This document shows, piece by piece, positions 1,189-40,933 of a stretch of 40,933 nucleotides of DNA (positions are counted from its first letter, which is position 1; every line of letters starts with the position of its first letter). Location of the stretch: the UHGV virus genome UHGV-0179541, one strand, 5' to 3'. The position numbers and the translations under genes were made by a program. The stretch comes from a virus. The notes under the pieces are model-generated. The model had not been told where the DNA came from. It did no database searches and saw only the letters and a program-made list of their open reading frames with translations.

Positions 1189-1353
1189 TTACATGTTCTT
1201 GATGATCGCATCACCAAATTCTGAACATTTCAGCAGTTTAGCGCCTTCCATCAGACGCTCGAAGTCATAGGTTACGGTCTTCGCATTGATTGCGCCTTCC
1301 ATACCTTTAACAATCAGGTCTGCGGCTTCAGTCCAGCCCATATGGCGTAACAT
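1189..1353 (-). pseudogene. icdC: icdC: displaced 3' fragment of icd (last 54 codons plus stop) at the prophage/chromosome junction
   Basis: About 165 bp homologous to 40541..40705; translates to [54 protein letters not shown], identical to the C-terminus of the icd ORF at the window end; homology stops at 1353. Confidence 0.85.
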
Positions 1354-1494
1354 TAGATTTAGAAAATTATTATATCCAATTGAATTAAAACAATTTTATA
1401 CTTAACGAACATCTAAACTTGTTTTTTTACCTTCACCATAACTCGCTGATTTTGTATAGTTTACGTAGCGTTTTGATAACCACTTTATGGCAAA

Positions 1495-1824
1495 ATGGAG
1501 GTTCGCTTGAAAACTTCTGTTCTTATCCAGAAATTAATGGAAATTGACAAAACTGTACTATTCGATGCGGACGTAGTGACCGGTGAGGAATGGTGGCCAA
1601 CCCCGATTTCTCGTGTTTATCACAATCCGCCACATACTTATGTAGAATTTTAAACAGGTGAACAATCTCAAAATGAATCTGACGAGCTAAGTGTTTATAG
1701 CGAATTACAAATTTGTGCACATCGAATGATGCAAATTAGAGATTTTGTGCAATCTAACGAGGGACTGAAACCTGAAAAAATTGTTTCGGAAATAAACATT
1801 CAAATTGAACGTATTAAAAAGTGA
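1495..1824 (+). pseudogene. Small reading frame interrupted by one in-frame TAA (1651..1653): 52 codons, stop, 56 codons
   Basis: Hand translation: MEVRLKTSVLIQKLMEIDKTVLFDADVVTGEEWWPTPISRVYHNPPHTYVEF, stop, TGEQSQNESDELSVYSELQICAHRMMQIRDFVQSNEGLKPEKIVSEINIQIERIKK; absent from the ORF track because each half is under 60 aa. Confidence 0.3.
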
Positions 1825-1889
1825 TGGCTGAAGCAATTCTGAAACACTAATTCATATTCTATGTTATTCATACCAATGTGGATTTAACT

Positions 1890-1929
1890 CCCACCAACCC
1901 ACCAACCCACCAACCCACCAACCCACCAA
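1890..1929. repeat. Tandem repeat (CCCACCAA) x5, 8-bp unit
   Basis: Read directly: five perfect head-to-tail copies, about 260 bp upstream of the DUF262 gene start. Confidence 0.9.
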
Positions 1930-2187
1930 CCATGATTGGGCGGCGCAAGAAACTAATATCAATTAAAACAGCAAGTTATCAGTCTAAACAGAACACCAAC
2001 GGGATGGAGGAGAGACAAAAAATATCCAATGAAACCGTAGCGCGTCAGCATTCAAAAGCGGGGTTTCTTATTTTTACTTCACCAGTAACAAATACACTGT
2101 ATCATAACTACATAAAAATGATTGTTCTGACTCAGATGAATTTCTTACTCTTGTGGAATGTCACTTAATGTTATTTATAGGTAAACA

Positions 2188-4077
2188 ATGAAATCCGAAA
2201 CGCTAACCATCCAGCAAATTTTCCAAAATCAACGACAATATCGTGTTCCATTCTATCAACGTGCCTACGTATGGACGCAACGAAACCAATGGTCAGCTTT
2301 GTTGGAGGATATCTTCGAAAAAGCACAGAGCCGACTTTCGGGAACAAAACCAACCCCTCATTTCCTCGGCGCGGTGGTGCTGGAACCTCAACTCAAAAAC
2401 AGCTTGTTAGGTGTAGATACCATACATATTATTGACGGCCAGCAACGTTTAACCACTCTTCAATATATTCTGGCATCCATTCGATTATCATTGCGTGCTA
2501 CAGGCCTTTCTGAACTGGAAGGGTTAGTATTGACTTGCTTGAAAAATACAAACGAAGCAACGATGAGAAATAAAAAGGTAGAATGCTTCAAACTGTGGCC
2601 AACTTTTCGAGATCAAACTCATTTTATTCAAAGTCTTAATGTTGATAATATTGACGATCTCCGTAATGTATTTTCTGATAGCTTCACGCAACATGGTACG
2701 TTACGTAAACATTTCAACCACCCGCCGTCACTAGAGGCATTATGGTTTTTTACTGAAGCCTTTATAAAATGGATTAAAATAGAAAAACACTCACCACAAG
2801 AAAATGCTGTAGCACTAATTGAGGCTGTCTTGACGGATCTGAAACTGGTAAGCATATTTCTCGAAGCTGAAGATGATGCCCAAATAATTTTTGAAACATT
2901 AAATGGGCGAGGAGCGGAACTTCATGCAACGGATCTTATTCGCAACTATATCTTTATGTGCGCTGAGCATGAAAATATTAATGCTATTGAATTATATGAA
3001 AATGAGTGGAAGATCTTTGAAGATAAATACTGGTCGGAAAAGCAACGCCGTGGACGTATTAATAAACCACGCATGGAGTGGCTTGTACATGCGACATTGC
3101 AATCAGAAAGGCAGCGTGAAATTGATCTGTCTCGCCTTTACAATGAGTATCGTGATTATGTAAGTAAGGACTTGCCTTCACAACGAGCAGATCTGCAAGT
3201 AAAGCGCCTCAAACAATATGCATCACAATATAAAGAATTGGTTGGTGGTTTTGGCACAACCCCCATCTCACACTTTAGACATCGCATCGCAGCCTATGAT
3301 GTGACGACACTCTATCCGCTTGCTTTGTTCATTTCGATAGCTAACATCGCCGATGATGAGAAAGCAGCCATGTATAATGATCTTGTCTCCTACGTAGTAC
3401 GAAGATCCGTATGTGGCCTGACGCCAAAGAATTACAACAATGTATTTATGAATGTATTGCGACACTTGTCTAAAACGGAAATTTCCAGTGTTGAGTTACG
3501 TAATATCCTCAATAGCTTAAATGGCGAAGCCTCACGTTGGCCTGGGGACTCAGAATTTCTCAACGCTTGCATCAATGCTCCACTTTATCCTGGCAGGCTC
3601 GACGCACCGAAAATGCGCTCAATGTTAACGGAACTTGAAAGAGAACTTTGTCGCCAAGTGAAGACAGAAAAGCCTGATGTTCCAAATCTTTCTAATCTCG
3701 ATATCGATCATCTTATGCCTCAAAGTTGGTATTCCTGTTGGCCTCTCGAAAATGGTCATATGGTGACAAATTCAGATGCTACGGTAATGAACCAAATTGT
3801 TCTGTCTGGAACCGATCTTACCCCTGAACAGCTACTGGTAAGGAAACGGCAACAAGCGATAGCTACGTTGGGAAATCTAACTTTGCTTAACCTTAGCGTA
3901 AACCGTTCCGTTCAGAATGCTGTATTTCTGAAAAAACGTGATGCTCTCATCGTCCATACCAATCTACGACTGAACATACCACTTATACTTAAGGATAAAT
4001 GGGATGAGAGTGAAATACTGGAGCGAGGTAAAAAGTTGGGGGAAATTGCATTGAAAGTATGGCCAAAATACGATTAA
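2188..4077 (+). CDS. DUF262/DUF1524 two-domain protein, GmrSD-family type IV (modification-dependent) restriction endonuclease-like
   Basis: N-terminal motifs VPFYQRAYVW and IIDGQQRLTTL (DUF262 / ParB-like signature DGQQR); C-terminal DIDHLMPQS region consistent with the DUF1524 His-Me finger; AT-richer than phage core. Confidence 0.75.
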   Translation: MKSETLTIQQIFQNQRQYRVPFYQRAYVWTQRNQWSALLEDIFEKAQSRLSGTKPTPHFLGAVVLEPQLKNSLLGVDTIHIIDGQQRLTTLQYILASIRLSLRATGLSELEGLVLTCLKNTNEATMRNKKVECFKLWPTFRDQTHFIQSLNVDNIDDLRNVFSDSFTQHGTLRKHFNHPPSLEALWFFTEAFIKWIKIEKHSPQENAVALIEAVLTDLKLVSIFLEAEDDAQIIFETLNGRGAELHATDLIRNYIFMCAEHENINAIELYENEWKIFEDKYWSEKQRRGRINKPRMEWLVHATLQSERQREIDLSRLYNEYRDYVSKDLPSQRADLQVKRLKQYASQYKELVGGFGTTPISHFRHRIAAYDVTTLYPLALFISIANIADDEKAAMYNDLVSYVVRRSVCGLTPKNYNNVFMNVLRHLSKTEISSVELRNILNSLNGEASRWPGDSEFLNACINAPLYPGRLDAPKMRSMLTELERELCRQVKTEKPDVPNLSNLDIDHLMPQSWYSCWPLENGHMVTNSDATVMNQIVLSGTDLTPEQLLVRKRQQAIATLGNLTLLNLSVNRSVQNAVFLKKRDALIVHTNLRLNIPLILKDKWDESEILERGKKLGEIALKVWPKYD

Positions 4078-4099
4078 TGCAATTAATAAAATGATTATA

Positions 4100-4123
4100 G
4101 CGGCCTTACATTAGTAAGGCCGC
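4100..4123. terminator. Hairpin GCGGCCTTA-CATTAG-TAAGGCCGC between convergent genes
   Basis: Perfect 9-bp stem immediately after the DUF262 gene stop; the truncated invertase frame terminates inside the loop. Confidence 0.6.
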
Positions 4124-4338
4124 AACTCACTATTAAATCCTTTAATTTGCATCAAGAACAGCACTGTCAGCCCTAGGCTCTCGGACTTTGTACCGCTTAT
4201 CTTGTCTTCAAAAATCAGCTCGCATCCTGCACAGTTAAACGCATTACGTTGTAGATCGATTTTCTGGTCATTTGTTGATACGCAAACATAGCCAATAAGC
4301 ATGGTAGCTCCCTCTGACAAAAGCAGGAATGATGCCAT
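4111..4338 (-). pseudogene. Truncated serine DNA invertase (Pin/Gin/Hin family), N-terminal 75 codons only
   Basis: MLIGYVCVSTNDQKIDLQRNAFNCAGCELIFEDKISGT matches the invertase N-terminus including the catalytic-serine region; frame ends after about 75 aa where a full invertase is about 190 aa. Confidence 0.75.
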
Positions 4339-4718
4339 TTTCTCGTTATTTCTGCATTTTCATAAACGTTGGTTTGGGAGAATTATCTCTGGCTGGCACT
4401 GCATCGGGTGTCATTGGTCTGAATGGGTATGTAACGATTCCGTTAATTATTTCAGGTTCCCGGAGAACACTGATTATTCAGTGGGGGCAGGCGAGATTTG
4501 GTGGGTCTGGTGGTGAAGATGCCGGATATCTTAATGATTTTCCTTTTGCCTTTCCGTCAGCATGTTATGGAATGATAGTTAGTCATGTGGGGCATACACC
4601 TTCAGGCGCAGGAATCCTGTCGGCTTCTGCAATTACATCAAATCAGTTCCGCGGTTTTTCAAGCATAGCGACTGCTGCAAATGCTGTATTAGGTCGTTAT
4701 ATCGCTATAGGGGGTTAA
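4329..4718 (+). CDS. Silent alternative tail-fibre C-terminal cassette (inverted orientation); ORF start not meaningful
   Basis: Shares the LIIQWG junction and 17-bp inverted repeat with the expressed tail-fibre gene; followed by its own Tfa gene. Confidence 0.5.
   Translation: MMPFSRYFCIFINVGLGELSLAGTASGVIGLNGYVTIPLIISGSRRTLIIQWGQARFGGSGGEDAGYLNDFPFAFPSACYGMIVSHVGHTPSGAGILSASAITSNQFRGFSSIATAANAVLGRYIAIGG
4470..4486. repeat. Left inverted repeat CTGATTATTCAGTGGGG of the tail-fibre inversion segment
   Basis: Exact reverse complement of 5768..5784. Confidence 0.8.
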
Positions 4719-4719
4719 T

Positions 4720-5157
4720 ATGTTTTATAGTCCATCATTAAACATTTTTGTGAATCCTGCGCTTAAGGATGATTACATTAATGCAAATTCATGGCCAGAT
4801 GATGCTCTGGCTGTCAGTGATGATGTTTATAATGAATTTGCAATCAATACGCCCCCATATGACAAAATTCGTGTTGCAGGAAAAAATGGATTACCCACAT
4901 GGGCACTAATACCTCCACCATCGCATGAAGAACTTATTCAACAGGCAGAATCAGAAAGGCAATTATTGCTTAATCAGGCCAACGAATACATGAACAGTAA
5001 ACAATGGCCCGGTAAAGCCGCTATTGGTCGTCTGAAAGACGAGGAACTGGCACTATATAATTTGTGGCTGGATTACCTGGACGCACTGGAACTGGTGGAT
5101 ACCTCCAGTGCTCCAGATATTGAATGGCCTACACCTCCGGTAACTCAGGCCAGCTAA
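4720..5157 (+). CDS. Tail fibre assembly protein (alternative cassette)
   Basis: 145 aa, Tfa-like C-terminus (DIEWPTPP), convergent with a second Tfa gene. Confidence 0.7.
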   Translation: MFYSPSLNIFVNPALKDDYINANSWPDDALAVSDDVYNEFAINTPPYDKIRVAGKNGLPTWALIPPPSHEELIQQAESERQLLLNQANEYMNSKQWPGKAAIGRLKDEELALYNLWLDYLDALELVDTSSAPDIEWPTPPVTQAS

Positions 5158-5554
5158 TCTCAGGAGCCGTCGAAGTGTCGACGGCTTTTACTTCTTTTTT
5201 GTAGTCCATCCAGGCGGATAGTTTTTCTTTATCTGTACTGCTGATATCACCAAGCATTAATTCCACTCGCCAGTCAGCTGTGACATTATCGGCATGAGCA
5301 AGTAACTGCATTCGCTGATTTTCAGCACGTGCGACATAATCAATCGCCGGAGATTTCAGTACCGGTAAACCATTTTCATCTGACGTGATTAATTTACCCC
5401 CTTCCTGCTGTCCGGCAATTAATTCATTGTATAAGTCTGTACTTATCTCAACAATGTCAGCAGGCATGTCGCTGTTTATACCATCAAAGAAAAAACCATT
5501 AGTCGATTTTGAGAAATAAATCATAGATATACCTATACACCGATTGCTACCCAA
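5129..5554 (-). CDS. Tail fibre assembly protein (expressed cassette)
   Basis: 141 aa, Tfa-like (EISWPELP), immediately downstream of the tail-fibre gene. Confidence 0.7.
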
Positions 5555-6189
5555 AAACAGGACCTTTCATATTTGACAATTTCTCCCTGAGATATACCGC
5601 CAACAATTATATAGAACTGTGATTTGGTGATATCAGAACAGTTCGCAATGCCCATTGCAGATATACCAGCCAACGACGTTGTATGTGGCACAGCCAACAG
5701 CGCAAGTGAACGATTTGGGAATGTTACCGGGTAAGTCACCGTATAGTTTGATGCTCCACTGACAATACCCCACTGAATAATCAGACCTGAAGGGAGTTTT
5801 TGAAAACCCGTTGATGAAAGTGAACTGGCAAACGCCGCCATATCCGGAATTTGGTTTTGCCCGTTACCTACATTCCGTTTTGCCGCTTCTCCCAAACCAA
5901 GGTTTTGAAGAGCCGTTTTCACCGTGCCGTCCGATTTGATATCGCCAAACGGATTTTTGCGACTTAACAGCAGCGCACGAAGCGCGGTAAGCAGCTGGTC
6001 ATGCCGCCCCTTCTCCAGGCTGGCACCGGATGCCTCCACCACGCTGCAGAGCTCTTCCTGCAACATGTCAAAGTAGTCATCATCCAGATCGGTGGCAGGC
6101 GTGCCGGTCTGGGGGTTACCACGGGTAAAACCGTTCTTACCCGCGCCGAACTTATCCTTCTGCGCGGTTTTCGTGTCTATACGATGCAT
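5533..6189 (-). CDS. Tail fibre protein (short, e14 Stf-like)
   Basis: 218 aa following the baseplate genes; C-terminal half begins at the inverted repeat. Confidence 0.65.
5768..5784. repeat. Right inverted repeat of the tail-fibre inversion segment (inside the tail-fibre gene)
   Basis: CCCCACTGAATAATCAG, reverse complement of 4470..4486; encodes LIIQWG in the tail-fibre frame. Confidence 0.8.
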
Positions 6190-6192
6190 GGA

Positions 6193-6777
6193 TTACTCCG
6201 GATATTTAAAAATTACGTAGGTATGCGACGGGCAGAGTTTGTTAAGCACACATTCGACAACTGTGTCGCCCCAGATACGCAGTGCGGAATCACAGGGATC
6301 GCCACATGTCATCCAGGTGGTGTTGGTGGCGGCTGGCATGTTGACCTGCCAGTAATACCGCCATTCAGGCGCGTTCACAGCGTCAGTACAGGCCGATGAG
6401 CAGGTGAACGTGCTTTTGTCGTATCGCGTGATGGTGGCATCTGGTCTGCCCAGGGCAGCAAGCTGTGCAAGATAAAAATCCTCGTTGATGCCGCCCGCCA
6501 GGTTAACCTTCGCATCCAGCCGTTGCTGACGCTGGCGAAGGGTCTGTGTCCCTGCGGGAATACATTCATCCGGCAGACCGCACAGACGCTCCCAGCGGTT
6601 TATCAGTTCAGTGGTGGTGCGCGGATCCAGCTCCCGCATCAGGGCATCCGCACGCTGATGAACGCGGGATAATGACGGTGCCGCACCGGCAATCGCCGGA
6701 TCGCTGGCTGACCACGCCGGACCGGGGGGCAACAGTGCCGACAACAGACGGATGTAATCATCGTTTGTCACGTCCAT
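6193..6777 (-). CDS. Baseplate protein, Mu gp48 / YmfQ-like (DUF2313)
   Basis: 194 aa; position and sequence consistent with the e14 YmfQ family. Confidence 0.6.
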
Positions 6778-7826
6778 GAAATCGTCCCCAGTACCGCCAG
6801 TTCATTTTTTGCAATGGAGATATTGTCTGCCGGTGCAAGCAACTGATGGCTGTATTCCCCGTTCGCACCGGAAATCGCCTCACTGATACGCGATACCTTC
6901 AGTTCTCCCTGCGGATAACCATCACGCAGCAGGAACGAACGCAACTCCGCGGTGATGGCAGCCCGTATTTCCGGTGTGTCCGGCGTCACACGGATATGAA
7001 AATCCACCGTATGTGCCACCGGCCTGAACACATACAAATCAGAGCCTGCCACCGGGGCCAGTGGCTCGATATGTTGTCTTGCCGCCGTTTCCGTTGATTC
7101 TTCCGGAATGGGATTAATCAGGTCACTGCTGGCTATCATCACACCGACAGTCCCCGTTCCCATCCAGTGTCGGTATGTCCATGCGCGGGTAATGCCGGGC
7201 ACTTCTTTAGCCCAGACGACATAGTCCCCGTCAGCCCCGCCCTGAGGCGTCCAGTAATACCGCTCAATGACGCGGGCGCGCCACGTTTCCAGCTCTTCAA
7301 TATCAAATCCACCTGTCAGGGTATCTGCCTCGCCGGAAGACGGCAGACCATTAACCGGCGTGACCAGGATTAATGACGTACCGTCGTCAGCGTTACCGAC
7401 CGCGCCTGCACTTGAGCAGGCGATCGGCACGCGCAGGACACCACCGGTGCTGGTTGCATCGGCAGTTGCCGTGTACTGAACCAGGTCATCGCGCTGAATA
7501 ACACTTCCGGCGGTCACCTTCAGGCCATCGCTGACACCTTCCCAGCGCATATACCCGCTGGCAGCCGTGGCCCCCTTGCGCGGACACCGTTTCATCGCAG
7601 CATGTCGCGCCAGCCAGGACTCATCGCACAGGTCAGGCAGCATGTTCATTGCCAGATAATCGATGTACCCGTAAACCGTATGCAGCGCCGCCGCATACAC
7701 CTTTGCCCGCACGTCTTCATCCATGCGCCGGAGCGTGTCGCTGACGTCCAGCCTGGCGAATAAATCGTTACGGAGCATACTGATATTTTCTGCCAGCGTC
7801 GGGCGCTGAAATTCACTGTCCGCCAT
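6768..7826 (-). CDS. Baseplate J-like protein (Mu gp47-like)
   Basis: 352 aa, conserved position in the Mu-type baseplate cluster. Confidence 0.65.
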
Positions 7827-8241
7827 GCGTTATCGCACTCCACAGATCATCAAAAGAAATCATTACCGGTCCGTCACGACGCCAGAGAGTGATACTGTTA
7901 CCCAGTTCATTAATCCCGGTGCGGCGGATATCCAGATCAATACGGGACACCACGCCGTCATCAATCATCCATTGCAGGCATTCGCGGATATACCCCCTTA
8001 CCGTCTGCACCAGTTGATTGGTCAGTTTGCTGCGCTGAAGCAGCCACAGTCGGGAGCCGTAACGGTCATTCTGTACCGCAGGCCAGGTATCCCCCCACCA
8101 TCCCATCGGGACGTCGGCATTGTCATCAGGCTCCGCCCGCCGCCAGGTAAACAGGGAAATCACCACGGCGCGGGTCAGCGGATCCAGCGGTGCGCTGGCG
8201 CAGGTGCGTTTACCGTTCACCGTCAGCCACAGTTCCATCAT
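7813..8241 (-). CDS. Baseplate protein, Mu gp46-like
   Basis: 142 aa, position between gp45-like and gp47-like genes. Confidence 0.55.
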   Translation of the reverse strand: MMELWLTVNGKRTCASAPLDPLTRAVVISLFTWRRAEPDDNADVPMGWWGDTWPAVQNDRYGSRLWLLQRSKLTNQLVQTVRGYIRECLQWMIDDGVVSRIDLDIRRTGINELGNSITLWRRDGPVMISFDDLWSAITHGGQ

Positions 8242-8786
8242 GCCTCCATCGCTTTATCAGGTTTGTCGGTGTTACTGCCCTGACCGTTCTCTCTGTGACG
8301 ATGCCCGTTATAGGCAAGCCGCATCGCTGACATGGTGGTGCCGCCGGAGTCGCACAGGTCTTTCACCTGTCCGGTCACTTCAAGGTCCATTTCAAAACGT
8401 GCTTTAGGTGAATTGCGAAACGTGATCGTTTTACCTGCACCGTCCACCACGATCCCCTCCCGGGTCAGCGTCACGGACTGCCCCTGATCGTCATAGACAG
8501 CCACCTCACCCGTCTGCAGCCCTTTCAGGCGGTAGCGCCGGTCCGACACCGTAACAACCACCGCATGAGAACGGTCGCCATCCGGAAACAACACCACCGC
8601 TTCCGCACCGCTGTTTGCCCTTGCGGTAAAACCGTAGGGTTCAAGATGTTCAACCCCGGCTTTGGGTTCACCGGCAATCAGGGACACATCCACGGTCTGA
8701 CATTTCGTGGCGGCACTGATGCTTTTCACCACCGCCCGCCCAATCAGGCCGAGGAGTTGTCGCTGTATGGTTTCAATCGCCTTCAT
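8238..8786 (-). CDS. Baseplate assembly / spike protein (Mu gp45-like)
   Basis: 182 aa, synteny. Confidence 0.55.
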   Translation of the reverse strand: MKAIETIQRQLLGLIGRAVVKSISAATKCQTVDVSLIAGEPKAGVEHLEPYGFTARANSGAEAVVLFPDGDRSHAVVVTVSDRRYRLKGLQTGEVAVYDDQGQSVTLTREGIVVDGAGKTITFRNSPKARFEMDLEVTGQVKDLCDSGGTTMSAMRLAYNGHRHRENGQGSNTDKPDKAMEA

Positions 8787-9865
8787 CAGAACGGGTCCTC
8801 CTGTACTCTGGCTTTTTTCTTTTTCCGCGCGCCGGGGGCTTCGGGTTCAGGCAGATAAGCATCAGGTGGGCCGACACGGATTTCCGTCAGGGTGCCATTC
8901 TGGTCCTGAGTAAACGTGACTTCCGAGACAAGCAGTTCGGTATTGTCGAAACCACAGACCGGATCGAAGACAATCACCCGCTGGTTGGGCTGCCACAGCG
9001 TACCGTTACCCTGTCGCCAGCCCTGCACCACATAGGTGGTTTCATCCGTCCGCGCCGCCCGTTGCCGGGCTTCAAAGTCAGCACGGGCAATACAGCCTGC
9101 CCCCGTGGCCTGCCCTGTCTGCCTGATATACATCGGACGGTAACGGGCAATAAATGCGTCCTCTGTGCGGGCCCGCAGCGCGGTGGTGGTGGCCTCACCG
9201 AAATCATCGTCGTTTCCGGCACGCTGCCCCGCCACCTGGTAAACTGAAAACCGCTCCCGGATACTCTTCTCCGTATCACAGGAAAGGATGTTTTCCCCAA
9301 GTACCAGCGCGGTATGTGCCCGCGTTGAGCCAATACCGCCAATCACCAGCCTGCCGTGCGGGTCGTCATAAGCCAGCGCCTGCTGCTGACCGAGTATTTT
9401 GTTGATTACCTCAATCACCGTTTCACCGTGATCAGGCTGGACATCAGGAATAACACCCGACGGCGCACCGCTGTTCACCACCTCAATGCCGAAAGGCGCA
9501 GCAAGCGCCTGCGCAATCTGTACCAGCGATCGTCCGTTAAACTGTGTCGGTTCGGCTGCACAGTCAATCAGGTCAGCGGTCAGACTGCGTCCGGCAATAC
9601 CGGTGCTGACCGAACGGGCATCGTAACGAACGGGCGTCGCCTCCACCCAGCCGGTGATCACCAGCTCATCACCAATCAGCACCTCCACTTTTGAACCGTT
9701 TTTAATGCGCGGCTGAAGCGTGGTGATACCCTCATCTCCCGGCCACTGGCGGGTGATCTCCACACTGAAATCCCGCGCCAGTCGTTCAACACCGGCACCG
9801 ATGCGCACCGATGTCCAGCCATTCCACTCCCGGCCATTTACCCGTAGCGTGACGTTATCGTTCAT
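8786..9865 (-). CDS. Baseplate hub / tail protein (Mu gp44-like)
   Basis: 359 aa, synteny after the DNA-circularisation-like gene. Confidence 0.55.
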   Translation of the reverse strand: MNDNVTLRVNGREWNGWTSVRIGAGVERLARDFSVEITRQWPGDEGITTLQPRIKNGSKVEVLIGDELVITGWVEATPVRYDARSVSTGIAGRSLTADLIDCAAEPTQFNGRSLVQIAQALAAPFGIEVVNSGAPSGVIPDVQPDHGETVIEVINKILGQQQALAYDDPHGRLVIGGIGSTRAHTALVLGENILSCDTEKSIRERFSVYQVAGQRAGNDDDFGEATTTALRARTEDAFIARYRPMYIRQTGQATGAGCIARADFEARQRAARTDETTYVVQGWRQGNGTLWQPNQRVIVFDPVCGFDNTELLVSEVTFTQDQNGTLTEIRVGPPDAYLPEPEAPGARKKKKARVQEDPF

Positions 9866-11232: not shown

Positions 11233-11250
11233 TAACAGATTAATTTTTCA

Positions 11251-15503: not shown

Positions 15504-15511
15504 GAGGATCC

Positions 15512-27221: not shown

Positions 27222-27268
27222 CGTAAAAATTCTTCAACGATAGATACACAAGCCCCATCGTTGAGAAA

Positions 27269-27297
27269 ATCTTATCCATATTTTTTGAAAAATACAA
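27269..27297 (-). promoter_or_regulatory. Putative late promoter pR'-like (TTGTAT-17-TAAGAT)
   Basis: Sigma70-like hexamers read on the minus strand between the Q stop and the terminator. Confidence 0.45.
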
Positions 27298-27328
27298 GTA
27301 TTATGTCATTATCTTCGGCGAAAATCGC

Positions 27329-28081: not shown

Positions 28082-28094
28082 GCTCGTTCTCCAC

Positions 28095-29090: not shown

Positions 29091-29091
29091 C

Positions 29092-29889: not shown

Positions 29890-29908
29890 ACTTCGTTTCT
29901 CCTCTTAA

Positions 29909-32703: not shown

Positions 32704-32712
32704 GACCGACCT

Positions 32713-33051
32713 CTATTTCCCTGAATTTACGACGAAACTGTTCGAGCGGGCTGAAGCACTCATGCTCATAGCCTTCACGGAGGTAGATAACCCGTTGTGT
32801 TTCCGGCTCCCAACGAATGACTCTGACGGGCACTCCGTAGTGATCTTTGAACCAGCGGTTAACTTGTCGCAAAGGACTGTCTCCTTCTGCCGGTTGAAAT
32901 CACCCACAGCCCACTCTGCAAAGCTGTGGGTTACAATTTCCCTGTCACCTGGTACATTCACTGCATAGCAATATTCCACCTTCGCTTTTCCACCCGGTAC
33001 AGGAAGCGCAATCAGTTGCGAGCGACGGTAGTGTGTTGTTAAACTGTTCAT
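32713..33051 (-). CDS. Hypothetical ORF between cII-like and replication genes (may be non-coding)
   Basis: Track ORF only; contains a 9-bp inverted repeat ACCCACAGC-N12-GCTGTGGGT at about 32902..32931. Confidence 0.25.
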
Positions 33052-33617
33052 GCGTTAGTTTCTCCACAACCAGAAGCAATCGACGCCACGACGCCCGGAG
33101 CTGCACACTCGCGGGCGTCATTACTTTCTGAAATGCAAAAAATTTTGTAGACAAGTGCTGCATGCTCCTGCAGCTTCGAAATTGAGAGATACAGCTCGTC
33201 GTTAATTGCTGTCTTCTCATGCGGTTCCACTACACCATCTTCGATTGCTGAACGAATCTGTTTTGAATAACTGCCGATCTGTTCAATGACTTCCAGCAGA
33301 CGCTGGTTAATATCGGCGTTGTCCACATCCTCGACGTCAGGAAGAGACACAAAGACGCCATTTGCAGACTGCGCCACAGCATCAGCAATGAAGTGAGTGC
33401 CACCAGCACGCTGTAAAACCATTGCCCATCCCAGCGGGAAAATCTGATCGCCATCTGCACGAAGGCGGTTGAATAAAGCGTTTTCTGTTACATCGAGCCA
33501 GTCAGCCGCTTCAGCGTAACCACCCGGCAACGCCGCGATAGTTTTTCTGACAGCTTTCACGTACCACTCAGGCTGTTTTTCTATTTTCCAGTGATGCTTA
33601 CCCACGATTAGCCTCAT
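33048..33617 (-). CDS. CII-like regulatory protein (CP76-family-like)
   Basis: 189 aa immediately downstream of cro; recall-based family assignment. Confidence 0.4.
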
Positions 33618-33648: not shown

Positions 33649-33849
33649 CTAATCTTTCGGATAGATATCCGGTCTTAAGTCAGATTTCGTAATTGCACCT
33701 GACGTGCATTGCTCAAGTTTTTTAGCCAGCACAAAACTGGCTTTTTTATAGCCATTGAAAACCAGCCGTAAGTAGCCAGGTGTTGAGCCAACTTTTCCGG
33801 CCAACTCGCCCTGCTGTTCTTTGGTTAAAGAGTCCCAATACGCTTTCAT
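33649..33849 (-). CDS. cro: Cro-like HTH repressor
   Basis: 66-aa frame MKAYWDSLTKEQQGELAGKVGSTPGYLRLVFNGYKK..., divergent from cI; AGGT ribosome-binding site. Confidence 0.6.
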   Translation of the reverse strand: MKAYWDSLTKEQQGELAGKVGSTPGYLRLVFNGYKKASFVLAKKLEQCTSGAITKSDLRPDIYPKD

Positions 33850-33852
33850 ACA

Positions 33853-33924
33853 ATATGTACCTCCGGTGTACATATTACATGATTGAAATGAACCTTCAAG
33901 ATACTTGTACCTTAACGGTACAAG
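33853..33924. promoter_or_regulatory. Immunity operators: ATATGTAC-N7-GTACATAT (33853..33875) and CTTGTACC-TTAAC-GGTACAAG (33904..33924) in the cro/cI intergenic region
   Basis: Two palindromes sharing a TGTAC core, read directly. Confidence 0.6.
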
Positions 33925-33939
33925 GGTTTTAATTTCGTT

Positions 33940-34614
33940 ATGAAAACAATCCATGACATCCGGCGGTCTAACGCCAGAAAACTGAGAGATGGTGTTGGCG
34001 GGAATTCTTCCTTTGCCACTATGATTGATCGCGAGCCAACCCAGACCAGCAGGTTTATGGGAGATGGTGCTACTAAAAATATCGGTGACAGCATGGCACG
34101 ACACATCGAAAAATGTTTCGACCTGCCTGTCGGATGGCTCGATCAAGAACACCAGACAACGAACATCACAAAAAAACCTGATGTTTCAATCACTAATAAA
34201 CAAATCACATTAGTCCCTGTCATATCATGGGTACAGGCCGGAGCATGGAAAGAAGTTGGATATTCTGAGGTTGATTTGAGCACAGCAGAAACGTATCCCT
34301 GCCCTGTCCCCTGTGGGGAAATGACTTATATCTTGCGGGTGATAGGTGATTCAATGATTGATGAGTACCGCCCGGGAGACATGATTTTTGTCGATCCTGA
34401 AGTACCTGCCTGCCACGGTGACGACGTTATTGCATTGATGCACGATACAGGTGAAACCACCTTCAAAAGGTTGATAGAAGATGGGACACAGCGTTATCTC
34501 AAAGCGTTAAACCCAAACTGGCCTGAGCCTTACATTAAGATCAACGGTAATTGCTCTATAATTGGTACAGTGATTTTCTCAGGAAAACCAAGAAGATACA
34601 AAATCAAAGCCTAA
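33940..34614 (+). CDS. cI: CI-type repressor (HTH plus S24 LexA-like peptidase domain)
   Basis: 224 aa; C-terminal S24-like region (GDSM, IGTVIFSGK); divergent from cro. Confidence 0.75.
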   Translation: MKTIHDIRRSNARKLRDGVGGNSSFATMIDREPTQTSRFMGDGATKNIGDSMARHIEKCFDLPVGWLDQEHQTTNITKKPDVSITNKQITLVPVISWVQAGAWKEVGYSEVDLSTAETYPCPVPCGEMTYILRVIGDSMIDEYRPGDMIFVDPEVPACHGDDVIALMHDTGETTFKRLIEDGTQRYLKALNPNWPEPYIKINGNCSIIGTVIFSGKPRRYKIKA

Positions 34615-35680: not shown

Positions 35681-35926
35681 ATGCTTCAAATGTTAACTCT
35701 TGAAGAATGGGCTACTGAAAAATACAGAAGCAATCCTCCAAGCGTGTCCACATTGCGTCGTTATGCTAAGCAGAATTTATTTTGCCCACCGGCCATGAAA
35801 CAAGGTCGGTTATGGCGAGTGCGTGAGGACGCCGAATTAGTTGGGGAGTTGGTAACGCCAATAATTAAGAAAAATGACTCATTACTTTTGCAACGGATTT
35901 TGAGTGATGGCAGCCAGACCGCGTAA
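35681..35926 (+). CDS. xis: Excisionase-like protein
   Basis: 81 aa overlapping the integrase start, the usual xis position. Confidence 0.55.
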   Translation: MLQMLTLEEWATEKYRSNPPSVSTLRRYAKQNLFCPPAMKQGRLWRVREDAELVGELVTPIIKKNDSLLLQRILSDGSQTA

Positions 35927-37034
35927 GAATAATGTTTCAGTCCCTAACTTATATCCGCTTTATAGTAGGAAGGTAAATAAAGTCTATTGGCGGTATAAGC
36001 ATCCAGTAACAGGAAAATTCCATGCTTTGGGAACAAACGAAGCTGAAGCTATCGCTATTGCCACTGAGGCCAACACTCGCCTGGCTGAACAAAGAACCCG
36101 GCAGATTCTGGCTATCAGTGACAGGATCGCAACCAGCAAAGGAAAGGCTATCACAACGTCAACCTGGTTAGATCGCTATCAAGCGATCCAGGATGACAGG
36201 CTTAAAAGTGGTGATATAAGACTCAACACCTATAAGCAAAAAGCTAAACCAGTATCCTTGCTCAGAGAACGAGCAGGAATGAAGTTGATCTCAGCCGTTG
36301 ATGTAAGAGATATAGCACAATTGCTTGACGAGTATATCGCTGCCGGGCAGCCGAGAATGGCGCAAGTCGTAAGGTCTGTATTGATCGATGTATTTAAGGA
36401 AGCACAGCATTATGGCGAAGTTCCGCCAGGGTATAACCCTGCTCTTGCGACGAAGCAACCCAGACGGAAAATTACCCGTCAACGCCTCAGCCTGGAAGAA
36501 TGGCAAAAAATATTCGATATCGCAGACGCCACTCATCGTTATATGGGAAATGCCATGCTCCTAGCTTTGGTCACTGGGCAGCGTTTGGGAGATATATCCA
36601 AAATGAAATTTAGTGATATTTGGGAGGATCATCTTCACGTCATTCAGGAAAAGACTGGAAGCAAAATCGCTATCCCTCTTTCTCTACGTTTGAATGCTAT
36701 CAATTGGAGCCTACGAGATGTAGTAGCTCGCTGCCGTGACTACGCAGTGAGCCCATACTTGGTGCATTTTTTCCGTTCAACCTCACAAGCAGAACGTGGT
36801 GCACAGGTTAAATCCAATACATTGACGATGAATTTTAGTAAAGCAAGGGATTTAGCAGGGATTGACTGGGGGGATGGCTCACCTGCCACATTCCATGAAC
36901 AAAGGTCTTTATCTGAACGCCTGTACAAAGAACAGGGGTTAGATACGCAAAAATTACTTGGTCATAAAACACAACAGCAGACCGATCGTTACCATGATGA
37001 TCGAGGCAAAGGATGGAGCAAAGTAGCATTGTGA
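35904..37034 (+). CDS. int: Tyrosine integrase (phage integrase family, icd-specific e14 / phage-21 type)
   Basis: 376 aa; C-terminal catalytic region ending HKTQQQTDRYHDDRG; prophage sits in icd. Confidence 0.85.
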   Translation: MMAARPRKNNVSVPNLYPLYSRKVNKVYWRYKHPVTGKFHALGTNEAEAIAIATEANTRLAEQRTRQILAISDRIATSKGKAITTSTWLDRYQAIQDDRLKSGDIRLNTYKQKAKPVSLLRERAGMKLISAVDVRDIAQLLDEYIAAGQPRMAQVVRSVLIDVFKEAQHYGEVPPGYNPALATKQPRRKITRQRLSLEEWQKIFDIADATHRYMGNAMLLALVTGQRLGDISKMKFSDIWEDHLHVIQEKTGSKIAIPLSLRLNAINWSLRDVVARCRDYAVSPYLVHFFRSTSQAERGAQVKSNTLTMNFSKARDLAGIDWGDGSPATFHEQRSLSERLYKEQGLDTQKLLGHKTQQQTDRYHDDRGKGWSKVAL

Positions 37035-37390
37035 AAATTTAAGCGTCTCAACGCCCCGTTGAATTTCTCAACATGCTTGAAAAAGAAACAAGCAGCCCGT
37101 TTTAAGTGAAAAAGGGACGCGTTTATATGTCAAAGAAATATGTTGATCAATAAAAGCTAAACTTCCAACTTGAGTGTTAAGTCGTATCAGGCTATAAGTC
37201 AAACGTATCGTAAGTAAATTCAATAACAGCCATTGATTATTGTGATGAACTCCATAATTTTAAAGAACACTCCAACCTCGATGTACTACTATTATTTCTT
37301 GATAATGAAGCGAAAGCTTAATCCTAACGAAACGTCTTGGACAGCTTAGTAGATTCATGATATACATTAAATCTCAAAAAAGGAAACAAT

Positions 37391-38350
37391 ATGGAAAGCT
37401 ATACTTTTGAATTGAAAGGAAATGTATTTGGCTTTTTTCAACGCAATGGTGAGGATTGTTTTTTATACATTAACACTGGTTTATTCCCTAAAGTAACCTA
37501 CTACCAATGGAGTCATTGGCAACGAGGAAAGGATAACTATAATGAAACATATCCTGATGCAATAAAAACAGATGAAATAGCAAAGGCGATTGGTTATTTT
37601 TCTTGGAATCAATGCTTTGATCGTTGTCCATACCAACCTATAGTTATCAGTTTATCTAAAAAAACAGAAGCAGGAATATTCTACCCTAGAATGAATAGAG
37701 GAGAACCAAAACTATATAACCAACAAATAGCGGAGGCACGAATCCTTGATGAAGTAAGGTCTTTTAATAATATATGTGATTCATTAAATGAATTATTTAA
37801 CTATATAGATCCTGATACTGGTAATTTGAGTTGTTTTGGTAATAAAATCAGAGAAATATTAATTATTGCATGTACTGAGGTTGAATACTTACTTCACAAT
37901 TTTCTTACAGATAATGGTTACACTGTTAACAACAATAGATTTAGTACTAACGATTATGTTAAATCTCTTGGTTTGCTGAAATTAGATGGGTATTCTACGA
38001 GGCTCGTTTACTATCCATATTTGCAAGAGTGGTGCCCATTTAGTGGTTGGGATGAATCTAAACCAACTACTAGTTTGACTTGGTATGACGCATATAATGC
38101 AGTTAAGCATAATCGCGGAACAAACAAGCAAAAGGCATCTCTTAACGCTGTAATAAATGCAGTAGCTGCCATTCATATTTTACTCGTAGCTCAATATGGG
38201 AGTGAGATATTTAATAGCCCGATGCACTCTAATTTCTCAAGCATTTTTAATACAACGAAATATCCTTCTTTCTTAGCAAATGATCTTCAGTGCCCAACAA
38301 TGAATCATGATCAAATCCTATGGGATAAAAAGTCATATTTATTTTCATAA
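37391..38350 (+). CDS. Hypothetical cargo protein, 319 aa, Trp/Tyr/Cys-rich, AT-rich (candidate single-gene defence or Abi protein)
   Basis: Strong ribosome-binding site (AAAGGAAACAAT ATG); AT-rich by eye; between int and the att site; no family recognised. Confidence 0.55.
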   Translation: MESYTFELKGNVFGFFQRNGEDCFLYINTGLFPKVTYYQWSHWQRGKDNYNETYPDAIKTDEIAKAIGYFSWNQCFDRCPYQPIVISLSKKTEAGIFYPRMNRGEPKLYNQQIAEARILDEVRSFNNICDSLNELFNYIDPDTGNLSCFGNKIREILIIACTEVEYLLHNFLTDNGYTVNNNRFSTNDYVKSLGLLKLDGYSTRLVYYPYLQEWCPFSGWDESKPTTSLTWYDAYNAVKHNRGTNKQKASLNAVINAVAAIHILLVAQYGSEIFNSPMHSNFSSIFNTTKYPSFLANDLQCPTMNHDQILWDKKSYLFS

Positions 38351-38472
38351 AAAATTGAAAACACCTTAGCCCGCTTCTGGCACGGAGTGGATAGAAAGCA
38401 AGGCATAAGTAAGTTATTAATTTAAGTTCTTCAAGAAAGTGCCCACTCTATATATTTGATGTCTTAACAGAT

Positions 38473-38510
38473 TAATATGTAGGTGTCTTTATAGCGACAC
38501 CTACATATTA
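38473..38510. terminator. Long perfect hairpin (15-bp stem TAATATGTAGGTGTC, 8-nt loop) between convergent cargo genes
   Basis: Read directly; T run follows on the plus strand. Confidence 0.6.
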
Positions 38511-38513
38511 ATT

Positions 38514-39533
38514 TCAATTATTTTTTTTATCAATTATATGACCACTGTTAGTGCCATAATACTTACCAGAAGCAACACCTTGCTTATAAAAATCATTCAA
38601 TACTTTTATTAGCAATCGTGCATCTGATGCATCTTTTATTACTAGCCTACCATTTTTTTCCTCTAACTTAGCACCTTCGAATATATTTAACGTTTCTTGA
38701 TATTTTATTATTATGTCAGGACTTAAATTTTCGTGGTTCTTTTTTTGAGCTATGCTCGCAATAGTTCGCTGAAGTGTTTTATTAGTTAAAATAACCTCTT
38801 CCAGAATTTTTATATTATCTATAATAGAAGCATCAGAAATAACCTTTAACACACTTCTTGCATTTTCCACAAATTCTTTTTCGATCCCGATAATTTGTTC
38901 AAACCCCAATTTCGATACAATATAAATCTTGTTATTTTTAAAGATAAAATCTATTTTTTTGTCAAAACTCACTGTCTGCATCGGAACGACTTTCATTGTA
39001 GCACTATTAACATCAAAGATAGCCTGCATTTTTTGAAAGGTATTCAATGGAGTATCTGTTGCCACCTTAGATTTTGTTAGCTTCCTATAAATGGTAAAAC
39101 CATCATCTTGTGTAGATATTTTTAAACAAAAAGCCAATATATCAGACTTAACTTCCTCTAGACTCTTTAATATATTTATTCCTGAGCCTTTATTTATTTT
39201 TTCTAATACTTTCCTGAATTCAAGGTCTTCAATATTTGCATAACCATAAATAGCGTCAGTCCCATCATCAGAAATCACTGAGTAGTCATGATACTCTAAT
39301 TCGTTGTTGCCTACCATTTTGTTTAATGTATCCAATGACCCAGTTTTAAAAAAATCCACCATTTTTTTGTCAAGACTCACCTTATAGATATCAAATATAA
39401 ATCTGTTTTCTGATGAGACTGAAGAATCTTTATTAATTTTCTTTGTTATCAAATAACATTTCATCGAAAATGTATTCGAGTGATAAAGATTCATTAGTGA
39501 ATTTAAAATACCTTTAATGTCTATTTCCGTCAT
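38514..39533 (-). CDS. Soluble 339-aa cargo protein, second gene of the two-gene operon (Kiwa KwaB-like by layout only)
   Basis: Start ATG overlaps the upstream stop (TAATG); Lys/Asn/Ile-rich, no TM segment; very AT-rich. Confidence 0.55.
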   Translation of the reverse strand: MTEIDIKGILNSLMNLYHSNTFSMKCYLITKKINKDSSVSSENRFIFDIYKVSLDKKMVDFFKTGSLDTLNKMVGNNELEYHDYSVISDDGTDAIYGYANIEDLEFRKVLEKINKGSGINILKSLEEVKSDILAFCLKISTQDDGFTIYRKLTKSKVATDTPLNTFQKMQAIFDVNSATMKVVPMQTVSFDKKIDFIFKNNKIYIVSKLGFEQIIGIEKEFVENARSVLKVISDASIIDNIKILEEVILTNKTLQRTIASIAQKKNHENLSPDIIIKYQETLNIFEGAKLEEKNGRLVIKDASDARLLIKVLNDFYKQGVASGKYYGTNSGHIIDKKNN

Positions 39534-40153
39534 TATTCTAATTCCTGATATTTAGCATAGAAGAGTTTGTAACCAATCTTTTGAATTTTGATACTGTCAT
39601 CTTCGTCCAAATATTTATTCGAACAAATTATCATTCCTTTCTTTTTTTGGCCGCCACTATTTATATACTCAATGCTGTAAAGTGAGTACTTTATAGCTAA
39701 AGTTGGATTTATAAGAATCATTGATGAGTTAGAATAAATAAGAAATGTAACCAGTAGCAGAATAGCTAAAGAAAATACACTCATGGGGTCAGAAAGATCT
39801 TGAAAAAGAAATGGCAGAAGATATGTAAAAAGATAACTTATAGATTCACTGTTTTTATTTTCTATGTCGACTATTTTTACAAAATCCCCATCATTATCAA
39901 TGCGTCTTTCCATATTTGATAATAAGAATATTAAACCAACAATACCAAAAACGACAAGAAGAAATATAATCGTAACCGCACCAAAATTTTCAATGTATAA
40001 TATTAATGCCTTCTTGTTCACCCCCCCCCAGTTGAGGTAATCTTTTTTCTTGTATAGTTGATTTACGGTCATAATTAAAAACAAAGGCATGTAAGACACC
40101 AAAAATAGTGTCAACCTTGCTCCTATTTTTAACTCTTCTTTTCGTGATGACAT
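39533..40153 (-). CDS. Four-helix membrane protein, first gene of the two-gene operon (Kiwa KwaA-like by layout only)
   Basis: Hydrophobic helices at roughly aa 20-37, 63-86, 111-125 and 131-148 of the track ORF; probable ATG start at 40153 after GAGG; contains the G9 tract. Confidence 0.55.
   Translation of the reverse strand: MSSRKEELKIGARLTLFLVSYMPLFLIMTVNQLYKKKDYLNWGGVNKKALILYIENFGAVTIIFLLVVFGIVGLIFLLSNMERRIDNDGDFVKIVDIENKNSESISYLFTYLLPFLFQDLSDPMSVFSLAILLLVTFLIYSNSSMILINPTLAIKYSLYSIEYINSGGQKKKGMIICSNKYLDEDDSIKIQKIGYKLFYAKYQELE
40021..40029. repeat. Homopolymer tract, 9 C on plus strand (G9 in the membrane-protein coding strand)
   Basis: Read directly; encodes WGGV. Confidence 0.9.
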
Positions 40154-40438
40154 AGTTCCAAAACCTCGAATCAACGCTTTCTTAGGTACTGATAACTGTA
40201 CCTAGTTTAACCTATAATATCTATGCAACATATTGATATATTGGTTAAAATTCCTTCTTTGATATCCCCTTACTTTCCCATTGATCAGTATGAAAAAACG
40301 TGAGCAATGTCCGTTATTGGCACTGAACGGACCTAAATATTAACGAGCATCCACCTGAAATGATCATAAAAAACTGAGGTATGCCTAATTGGAACTAGGT
40401 AATAGGGCTACCCTCTGAACATCCAAACTACTAGGGGG

Positions 40439-40471
40439 TTTTGATAACTTGTTTTGATAAAATTTTGATAA
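40439..40471. repeat. Three direct repeats of TTTTGATAA near the att site; candidate integrase arm-type sites
   Basis: Copies at 40439, 40452 and 40463; the same TTTTGATAACC motif recurs at 1471..1481 near the other end. Confidence 0.4.
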
Positions 40472-40494
40472 CCGTTAGCAGCCTAACAAAAAAC

Positions 40495-40517
40495 AACGGG
40501 AGCGTTACGCTCCCGTT
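40495..40517 (-). terminator. Rho-independent terminator of icd (AACGGGAGCG-TTAC-GCTCCCGTT)
   Basis: Hairpin immediately after the icd stop, followed by a T run on the minus strand. Confidence 0.75.
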
Positions 40518-40540
40518 AATAAATTTAACAAACAACGGCA

Positions 40541-40933
40541 TTACATGTTTTTGATGATTGCGTCGCCAAACTCGCTACATTTCAGCAGTTTAGCACCTTC
40601 CATCAGACGTTCAAAATCGTAAGTTACGGTCTTGGCGTTGATCGCGCCTTCCATACCTTTAACAATTAAATCAGCCGCTTCGGTCCAACCCATGTGGCGT
40701 AACATCATCTCAGCGGAGAGAATAATAGAGCCAGGGTTTACTTTGTCCTGACCGGCGTATTTCGGCGCAGTACCGTGGGTGGCTTCAAACAGGGCGCATT
40801 CGTCACCGATGTTTGCTCCAGGGGCGATACCGATACCGCCAACCTGCGCTGCCAGAGCGTCAGAAATGTAGTCACCGTTCAGGTTCATACAGGCGATAAC
40901 ATCATATTCAGCCGGACGCAGCAGGATCTGTTG
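40541..40933 (-). CDS. icd: Isocitrate dehydrogenase, 3' portion (gene continues beyond the window)
   Basis: C-terminal sequence [38 protein letters not shown]; ORF open to the window edge. Confidence 0.9.

Follow-up and report, generated by a model that had tools for sequence, protein, structure and literature searches.

An apparently intact prophage of the e14/SfV family in Escherichia coli icd, with defence cargo in known kinds of accessory positions

Introduction

A prophage that looks whole raises two questions, whether it could still live as a phage and what the genes that set it apart from its relatives do for it. Both are raised by UHGV virus genome UHGV-0179541, a stretch of 40,933 nucleotides that was analysed in full and is called the window here (all positions are counted along it). 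A first-pass annotation made from the sequence described a mosaic prophage of SfV and e14 type, possibly inducible, with variable genes in three separate slots. Our analysis indicates that positions ~1357-40706 are a complete temperate phage genome of the e14/SfV family, put into the 3' end of the Escherichia coli gene icd by an e14-type integrase, a reading to which we assign a probability of about 0.85. The element is apparently an intact member of this family, which is a very common one among E. coli prophages, and it carries defence cargo, a GmrSD-family gene and a Kiwa gene pair, in known kinds of accessory positions.

Results

Boundaries and integration site

The window is 99.85% identical over its full length to E. 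coli strain CFSAN061769 (NZ_CP042969.1), and host genes flank the element on both sides, with ycgX-ymgL-ymgK-iraM to its left and icd to its right. A direct repeat of 216 nt (1138-1353 and 40490-40705, 81% identity) is made up of two copies of the icd 3' end. Alignment to K-12 pairs the left copy with the pseudogene icdC and the right copy with the functional icd end carried by the phage. Homology to icd ends at ~1356 and ~40706, as it does for icdC and icd of K-12 e14, and the prophage proper therefore extends from ~1357 to 40706. Its length of 39.35 kb compares with a range of 37.1-41.5 kb for SfV, SfI, SfIV and SfII. The features that define the ends and the integration module are as follows.

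1189-1356, minus strand: displaced host icd 3' end (icdC pseudogene); direct repeat, alignment to K-12 icdC, RefSeq pseudogene annotation
35681-37034, plus strand: xisE and intE, an e14-type excisionase and tyrosine integrase, the latter of lambda type; Pfam Exc, Arm-DNA-bind_1 and Phage_integrase
40330-40706, minus strand: attP-proximal conserved stretch and phage-borne icd 3' end; alignment to the K-12 icd 3' end

The leftmost of these is host DNA, not phage, with the att crossover region (~1338-1356) at its right edge. At the other end, the phage-borne icd end (40528-40706) completes a functional icd and includes the attR crossover region (~40688-40706); since the phage brings this replacement 3' end, host icd stays functional. 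The span first proposed, 1189-40705, was right about a prophage in icd, but its start belongs to the displaced host fragment. Integration in icd and a phage-borne icd end are found together with the e14-type recombinases, as XisE is 96.3% and IntE 97.9% identical to the K-12 proteins, both over their full length.

A third copy of the icd terminator hairpin (48 nt, 85% identity) was observed at 278-325, ~860 bp left of the displaced icd fragment, and together with the hairpin at 1138-1185 it brackets iraM. It may have been left by an older event here, or be a terminator conserved by chance. A second icd remnant farther left, as repeated integration would leave, was considered and rejected, as only the 48-nt hairpin is there, without any icd coding remnant. 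A transfer RNA scan of the window gave no match, and an Rfam scan of the whole window at gathering thresholds gave 0 matches, and hence no homologue of the e14 small RNA C0293 or of another known RNA family.

Virion, packaging and lysis genes

The late genes occupy most of the left half of the element.

5533-15349, minus strand: Mu-type contractile tail (stf, gp48, gp47/J, gp46, gp45, P, N, tape measure, chaperone, tube, sheath); Pfam
15333-23040, minus strand: head-tail joining, HK97-type head (capsid, S78 protease, portal), YmfR, large and small terminase; Pfam
23091-23517, minus strand: cos region and HNH endonuclease; match to the SfI cohesive end, phrog_144 for the endonuclease
24048-25798, minus strand: lysis cassette of two holins, GH19 endolysin and inner and outer spanins (Rz-like); PHROGs 198, 217, 181, 1026 and 1275, transmembrane and signal features

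The HK97-type head and packaging module and the Mu-type contractile tail named at first pass were recovered as Pfam domain sets, namely Terminase_4, the ATPase and nuclease of the large terminase, Phage_portal, Peptidase_S78 and Phage_capsid for the former, and sheath, tube, DNA_circ_N, GpP, Mu Gp45, GP46, Baseplate_J and Mu Gp48 for the latter. By megablast, window 5839-23145 corresponds to SfII 21-17327 in one ungapped piece with 97.9% DNA identity, and the structural module as a whole is 97-98% identical in DNA to SfII, SfI, SfIV and SfV. From the small terminase to gp48, 22 of 22 virion proteins are full length, without gaps or stops, at 94-100% identity to SfII, a Shigella phage that forms plaques (97-100%, gapless, for those from gp48 to the sheath), and alignment of the virion genes to SfII uncovered none of the frameshifts or deletions in essential genes that would have spoken for decay. 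The tail fibre Stf is also full length, with 66% protein identity to SfII. Late genes are spaced by -26 to +49 nt, with the exception of 141 nt before the tape measure gene, where a chaperone extension open reading frame (ORF) lies. With the lysis set complete as well, the earlier description of intact structural and lysis genes in tight stop/start coupling is sound.

The cohesive-end 10-mer TGCCCGCCCC occurs as an exact match once in the window, at 23091-23100 on the minus strand, between the small terminase gene and the HNH endonuclease gene (23167-23517). The SfI cohesive end was determined experimentally on virion DNA (PMC3636060). The HK97-type head, HNH/cos region and Mu-type tail are thereby all present, collinear with SfV and SfII. 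The lysis module differs from the S/R/Rz/Rz1 genes of SfV and SfII, and SfV S, R and Rz searched against the window gave no match.

A decayed prophage at the same site, that of ECONIH5, carries a frameshift in a baseplate gene and an insertion sequence (IS) in its lysis region, and there int is truncated and mcrA interrupted by a stop; no lesions of this type were seen in the window genes. SfI, SfII and SfV are all inducible; for SfI, induction, plaque formation and images of a myovirus are on record (PMC3636060). The present element may well be inducible too, and its sequence gives no ground to doubt it.

Control and early genes

The remaining phage functions lie between the lysis genes and the integration module.

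27203-28081, minus strand: Q antiterminator (gene 27329-28081) with a downstream late-promoter-like site and terminator; Pfam Antiterm, consensus scan
28095-33605, minus strand: early right operon with DUF968, KilA-N, RusA, LexA-like, Dam, PerC, O-like, YmfM and YmfL (CII-like) genes; Pfam
33649-34614, both strands: immunity region, with cro (33649-33849, minus), operator region (33850-33939) and cI (33940-34614, plus); Peptidase_S24

Lambdoid control by cI, cro and Q, another element of the first description, agrees with the Peptidase_S24 and Antiterm domains and with 99-100% identity to SfV. The S24 autopeptidase-type cI matches K-12 YmfK at 100% and SfV cI at 99.6% identity, Cro does not differ from SfV Cro (100%), the operator region matches K-12 at 90/90 positions, and Q is 98.8% identical to SfV Q. 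Downstream of Q, consensus scans placed a late-promoter-like site at 27309-27280 and a tR'-like terminator at 27222-27203. The early genes from YmfL to DUF968 are full length, with 94-99% protein identity to SfII.

Inside the O-like replication gene (32331-32405) are four overlapping copies of a 30-nt repeat at 15-bp spacing, which is an iteron arrangement as expected of a lambdoid origin. The same gene belongs, together with ymfM and ymfL, to a 1.5-kb tract (31801-33309) that holds 44 of the 63 differences between the window and NZ_CP042969.1; the tract looks like a recent recombination patch among near-identical prophages.

Position and variability of the accessory genes

Comparison with four full-length comparators (ON470584, SfII, SfV and K-12 e14) left three large blocks unmatched, with a GC content of 0.39 (1364-4166), 0.43 (23529-27197) and 0.32 (37071-40329), whereas the structural region has 0.51-0.59. 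Apart from these, just 4383-4989 and 5154-5838 were unmatched, which are variable fibre parts of the invertible segment described below. The accessory features are the following.

1364-4166, plus strand: accessory block 1, left end, with a GmrSD-family type IV restriction gene (2188-4077) and a hairpin (4099-4122); Pfam, PADLOC, motif
23589-24005, plus strand: DUF6173 gene on the opposite strand, at a variable site between spanins and HNH; Pfam DUF6173
25808-27195, minus strand: late-operon moron slot with an 89-aa gene (26845-27114) and a 231/264-aa gene (25841-26536/26647); flank versus cargo prevalence
37071-40329, both strands: accessory block 3, the int-att island, with a 319-aa gene (37391-38350, plus), KwaB (38514-39533, minus) and KwaA (39533-40153/40174, minus); PADLOC, Pfam

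Prevalence was taken from 5426 complete E. coli genomes, with presence defined as at least 80% of the query. The int-att island was present in 4 of them, and in about 490 genomes the sole shared part was its last ~180-200 nt, next to icd. A left-end query (1354-4720: block, stump of an invertase gene and alternative fibre end) was found in 54, and the moron pair in 41, with the holin side (to ~25807) and the Q side (from ~27196) of that slot conserved in more than 1100. A comparison across icd prophages had been proposed at first pass, and in the int-att island it gave six different cargo sets in six of six sampled icd elements.

K-12: lit/ymfE/ymfD
ON470584: 350-aa DUF262 protein and 216-aa protein
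19AR0254: 156 aa and 1040 aa
ECONIH5: 133 aa and 59 aa
2014C-3338: 389 aa and TrlF-type ATPase
window: 319-aa protein and Kiwa

The three cargo places of the first-pass annotation match the three low-GC blocks and their low prevalence, and all three are variable. Their separateness did not hold, however, as the left-end and int-att slots both flank attP and would form one contiguous accessory region of about 6 kb in the excised genome, which corresponds to the gtr/oac region of the Shigella phages. There is also at least one more site, 23589-24005, which lies between the spanins and HNH/cos. SfV has nothing there, SfII has IS911 and a hypothetical gene, ON470584 a 168-aa ORF and ECONIH5 DUF6236. 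The middle block is a swap of a whole module (DUF6173, lysis cassette and morons), with the moron slot proper, 25808-27195, inside it. Relatives differ further in the early-left region (ymfI/ymfJ versus yfdP/Q/R) and in the immunity region.

Two other prophages were observed to carry part of the same cargo. The copy in strain OkiPb01685 (L014, NZ_AP042523.1) is decayed, with an IS3 in place of everything from the N-terminus of the tail sheath to that of the integrase; it keeps GmrSD at one end and the 319-aa gene with Kiwa at the other, at 99.9-100% identity. In strain O18 (L017, NZ_CP007275.1), an SfV-like prophage by ssrA has the same GmrSD gene and truncated invertase at 92% identity, followed by a LEM-3-like GIY-YIG protein, a DinI pseudogene and hypothetical genes. 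Its presence in a prophage integrated at ssrA means that the block moves between prophages with different integration modules.

GmrSD at the left end

The GmrSD protein (629 aa) joins an N-terminal DUF262 domain and a C-terminal DUF1524 His-Me nuclease domain in one polypeptide, as looked for in this family. Pfam GmrSD_N (117 bits) and GmrSD_C (69 bits) are both above cut-off, PADLOC mREase_IV scores 1516 bits, and the motifs DGQQR (residues 83-87) and D-H (507-508) are in place. The gene sits where e14 has mcrA. An ORF at 1878-2168 was considered as further cargo and set aside as probably no gene, as it has no family match and its translation is of low complexity, over a tandem repeat of 8 bp that differs from strain to strain. 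In this AT-rich non-coding stretch upstream of GmrSD, the window has one copy more of the 8-bp unit (CCCACCAA, 1890-1897) than NZ_CP042969.1.

Kiwa and the moron pair

The genes kwaA and kwaB abut at 39533 in the same orientation and form the pair expected of Kiwa, a multi-transmembrane KwaA next to a DUF4868 KwaB. PADLOC scores are 404 bits for KwaB and 316 bits for KwaA, Pfam KwaB scores 55 bits against a cut-off of 26, and KwaA has three hydrophobic stretches, one of them long enough for two helices. In the described Kiwa mechanism, KwaA senses infection at the membrane, KwaB binds DNA and phage replication stalls (PMC11785009). The proteins of the window are probably a divergent Kiwa subtype, whose activity we assume. 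The KwaA ORF is intact in the window (206/213 aa). NZ_CP042969.1 has one extra C at window position 40020 and is annotated there with a 126-aa hypothetical protein, either through a real inactivating frameshift or through a sequencing error.

In the late operon, the moron slot is bounded by the tR'-like terminator of Q on one side and by a second terminator, at 25807-25790 directly ahead of the holin gene, on the other. It is thus an extra block between Q/tR' and lysis, variable, with its own terminator and a distinct composition (GC of 26001-27000 is 0.36), as in moron and stx-type slots; a promoter of its own is a consensus match only. The 89-aa protein is winged-helix-like with a weak DUF2513 match. 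The 231/264-aa protein has a soluble N-terminal part and a C-terminal multi-transmembrane region, and its family counts 7 clusters among 5.8 billion proteins, all from Enterobacterales; a role in superinfection exclusion is our guess.

The 319-aa protein family

The 319-aa protein had no match in Pfam, NCBIfam or PADLOC. A word-indexed search returned 625 relatives of ~318 aa, all labelled "hypothetical", and a profile search of 1.84 billion representatives returned 2982 clusters (50% identity) at E<=1e-3, 854 of them at E<=1e-30. Pfam scans of 45 relatives and 10 distant members again gave no family. Members share a conserved core (residues ~90-310) and vary at the N-terminus; R154, C161, E163, E165, N236, K239, H240, R242 and H262 are among the invariant residues, and the invariant stretch Y235-N236-x-x-K239-H240-x-R242 is not the canonical HEPN Rx4-6H.

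The AlphaFold model is confident (predicted local distance difference test 90, predicted template modelling score 0.90). A fold search with it against the PDB and viral structures returned nothing significant, with weak HEPN-like matches and one unnamed viral fragment; several HEPN toxins were among the weak matches (E ~0.7-1, target TM-scores 0.5-0.6). Genomic contexts were sampled at loci L008-L013, L018-L020 and L022-L024.

Yersinia P2-like prophage: beside int and an OLD-family nuclease
Acinetobacter islands: DUF927 primase and SoFic-type Fic protein, by CRISPR I-F or an SNF2/methylase cluster
P2-like prophages of E. coli and Citrobacter: between the S and V tail genes
Serratia P2-like prophage: next to the gene for the tail fibre
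Lambda-like Citrobacter prophage, icd-proximal end: SRAP, T5orf172, UmuDC
Pseudomonas: DuOB/DUF488/mSLOG cluster
Pseudomonas: near a BrnTA toxin-antitoxin pair and a Bro-N gene

Nearly all sampled contexts are variable prophage positions or have conflict or toxin-antitoxin genes as neighbours. Such contexts are guilt by association, not proof. We tentatively propose, at somewhat under even odds, that the family constitutes a new anti-phage system made of one gene, whose effector core may be helical and HEPN-like.

Invertible fibre segment and invertase stump

Between the left-end block and the tail genes lies a DNA switch with a broken switch gene.

4156-4302, minus strand: Pin-type serine invertase remnant; tblastn with PinE, Pfam Resolvase positions 2-54 of 145, RefSeq "missing C-terminus"
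4364-5905, both strands: invertible tail-fibre segment; inverted repeat, 95% complementary

The invertase reported at the left end is a Pin-type gene, but only as a 49-codon remnant. It matches PinE residues 1-49 (82% identity to K-12 PinE) and continues into unrelated sequence up to the stop; pinE DNA homology ends at 4167, the start of the GmrSD block. A functional serine invertase next to the segment was not found. The segment itself has inverted crossover sites of 19 nt (4364-4382 and 5887-5905) around alternative fibre C-termini and chaperones, encoded by 4329-4718(+), 4720-5157(+), 5129-5518(-) and the 3' part of stf. Both orientations exist in nature. OkiPb01685 has 4359-5909 in the opposite orientation (99.7% identity, positions 7506-9056 of its locus) between 100%-identical flanks, with the same GmrSD and pin stump, and full fibre ORFs result either way. 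With the adjacent invertase cut to 49 codons, any switching must rely on an invertase encoded elsewhere. The flipped segment of OkiPb01685 reflects either inversion in trans or recombination of the stump-bearing flank into both orientations.

Discussion

The gene content described above suggests a conventional temperate life cycle. The S24-type cI, identical to that of K-12 e14, would keep the prophage silent until its cleavage in the SOS response, upon which Cro, the O-like replication functions and Q would be expressed and Int and Xis would excise the element. Q would antiterminate at the terminator just downstream of its own gene and allow one long leftward transcript through the morons, lysis genes, HNH and terminase genes, HK97-type head and Mu-type tail genes, and the DNA would be cut at the SfI/SfV-type cos site. 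Cargo that is not essential is found in places that break no essential operon: flanking attP on either side, in the interval from the Q terminator to the holin (the stx position) and in that from the spanins to HNH/cos. In the prophage, the two attP sides become the ends, with GmrSD on the tail-fibre side and the 319-aa protein and Kiwa on the int side. The cargo would mostly protect the lysogen against other phages, GmrSD by cutting DNA modified with glucosylated hydroxymethylcytosine and Kiwa by sensing infection at the membrane and blocking phage replication. We infer that homologous recombination in the conserved flanks lets related phages swap this cargo, in the manner reported for P2/P4 hotspots; the pin crossover site, the stop of int, the terminator of Q and the holin, all of them conserved, mark the edges of the blocks, as this mode of exchange would have it.

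Several points weigh against so complete a reading. Promoter and terminator calls are consensus matches, and promoter-like sites are no commoner than in shuffled sequence. Induction could still be blocked by point mutations, be they in promoters, operators, the origin or proteins. Although the phage can do without the truncated cis invertase, a switch of host range would depend on one supplied in trans. NCBIfam equivalog scores for Kiwa are below cut-off (KwaA 86 versus 100, KwaB 50 versus 200), and a sequence search with KwaA and KwaB found no solved Kiwa chain. The record ON470584.1 (vB_EcoM-689R6) was rejected as virion evidence, as it holds the host genes icd, rluE, nudJ, mnmA and hflD; the nearest GenBank "phage" records include host flanks, are prophage cut-outs and do not prove virions. 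A rival reading is a cryptic, or grounded, prophage that is intact only in looks, makes no infectious virions and is kept for the benefit of its defence cargo to the host. Many icd prophages have indeed decayed (K-12 e14 by two large deletions, OkiPb01685 by its IS3-linked deletion, and ECONIH5), the invertase gene of the window is itself cut short, and activity is beyond what a sequence alone can show. We nevertheless consider this unlikely, since the 22 virion genes, early genes, Q, int, xis, cI, cro, cos and att are free of lesions when compared with functional relatives, and near-identical copies (97-98%) occupy this site in strains that are unrelated and come from humans, poultry, mice, panda and seawater, which fits recent spread as a phage.

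With regard to how the cargo arrived, the blocks might instead be self-mobile cassettes of transposon, integron or homing type that entered in three independent insertions and not by homologous exchange. Their boundaries are sharp, their GC content is far below that of the surroundings, and GmrSD is flanked by a weak inverted repeat of 20 nt (1727-1746 and 4135-4154, 85%). The window, however, has 15 comparable pairs at chance level, of which that repeat is one, and the blocks contain no transposase, integrase or homing-nuclease gene and no target-site duplications. Moreover, GmrSD travels with the same pin stump and fibre flank in the ssrA-integrated prophage, as flank recombination predicts, the clustering of differences in 31801-33309 has the signature of a recombination patch, and the blocks stop at conserved genes or sites; self-mobile cassettes are thus very improbable. 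What the uncharacterised cargo does (the 319-aa protein, the 231-aa and 89-aa pair, DUF6173) is less clear-cut. These proteins have no PADLOC match and no informative Pfam or NCBIfam assignment, the same late-operon slot holds the toxin stx2 in relatives, and the att-proximal slot of Shigella phages holds O-antigen modification genes (PMC3636060). Roles other than anti-phage ones, in lysogenic conversion or within the phage (virulence, metabolism or lysis timing), are therefore a possibility to be taken seriously, if still a doubtful one. On the other side, same-slot neighbours here and in e14 are defence genes (GmrSD, Kiwa, Lit and McrA), the 319-aa family recurs in the positions and company described above, and 6 of 8 unknowns tested from satellite P4 hotspots were protective (bioRxiv 10.64898/2026.02.27.708500). 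A mostly protective cargo, carried by a complete temperate phage, is the reading we retain.

The element is a tidy example of a known pattern and leaves the understanding of prophage architecture unchanged. Its use lies elsewhere, as an apparently complete reference for the element whose remnant is the textbook e14 of K-12, with both K-12 deletions readable from it. Positions that hold Lit and McrA in e14, gtr in the Shigella phages and Shiga toxin in Stx2c phages hold GmrSD, Kiwa and uncharacterised genes here, which makes them a practical place to search for new defence genes. One concrete candidate, and the best lead, is the 319-aa family, which is large, has no name and keeps turning up in the cargo positions of prophages.

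Comparison with known elements

The mosaic of SfV and e14 type recognised at first pass is confirmed by comparison, with virion DNA like that of SfII, SfI, SfIV and SfV, an SfV-like cI/cro/Q and e14-type cI, operators, int, xis and att; SfI and SfV had previously been described as close relatives of e14 and lambda (PMC3636060). K-12 e14 shares with the window the icd site and icd 3' duplication, intE/xisE, cI (YmfK) and operators, and ymfI, ymfJ, ymfL, ymfM, ymfR and ymfQ. Its cargo is in the same positions, with lit/ymfE/ymfD in the int-att island and pinE and mcrA at the tail-fibre end; the window has GmrSD for mcrA, Kiwa and the 319-aa gene for lit/ymfDE, and a pin stump where pinE of e14 is intact. 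What e14 lacks is window 21953-32466 and 7555-20202, and with them all head, tail, lysis and Q genes. Its two fusion genes record the junctions: ymfN runs from the O-like gene at 32467 into the large terminase gene at 21952, and beeE from the portal gene at 20203 into gp47 at 7554. Both map as simple deletions, and K-12 e14 is therefore the element of the window minus about 10.5 kb and 12.6 kb, with other cargo.

SfII, SfI, SfIV and SfV resemble the window in their collinear virion genes, cos end, HNH-terminase order, early right operon, SfV-type cI/cro/Q and attP-adjacent cargo. They differ in integrase, in their tRNA-thrW site, in gtrABC/oac cargo and S/R/Rz/Rz1 lysis genes, and in having no invertible fibre segment. 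The Din-family switches (Mu G/Gin, P1 C/Cin and e14 P/Pin) have, like the window, crossover sites in the fibre gene and two C-termini each with a chaperone, but the adjacent invertase of the window is a stump of 49 codons. One Stx2c-converting phage is ~95% identical in DNA to the window across the early region, Q included, and has the same slot between the Q terminator and the lysis genes; in Stx2c phages this slot holds a methyltransferase with stx2A/stx2B, and the virion modules are others.

The hotspots of P2-like phages and P4 satellites (Rousset et al. 2022, PMC9122126; bioRxiv 10.64898/2026.02.27.708500) belong to another phage family and to other positions than the attP flanks and the Q-holin interval of the window. 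They nonetheless show the same fixed positions with rapid swaps of defence genes between near-identical genomes, and the 319-aa family is found at P2-like variable positions as well. As in the e14 family, where the decayed e14 of K-12 keeps Lit and McrA, their decayed elements keep defence genes.

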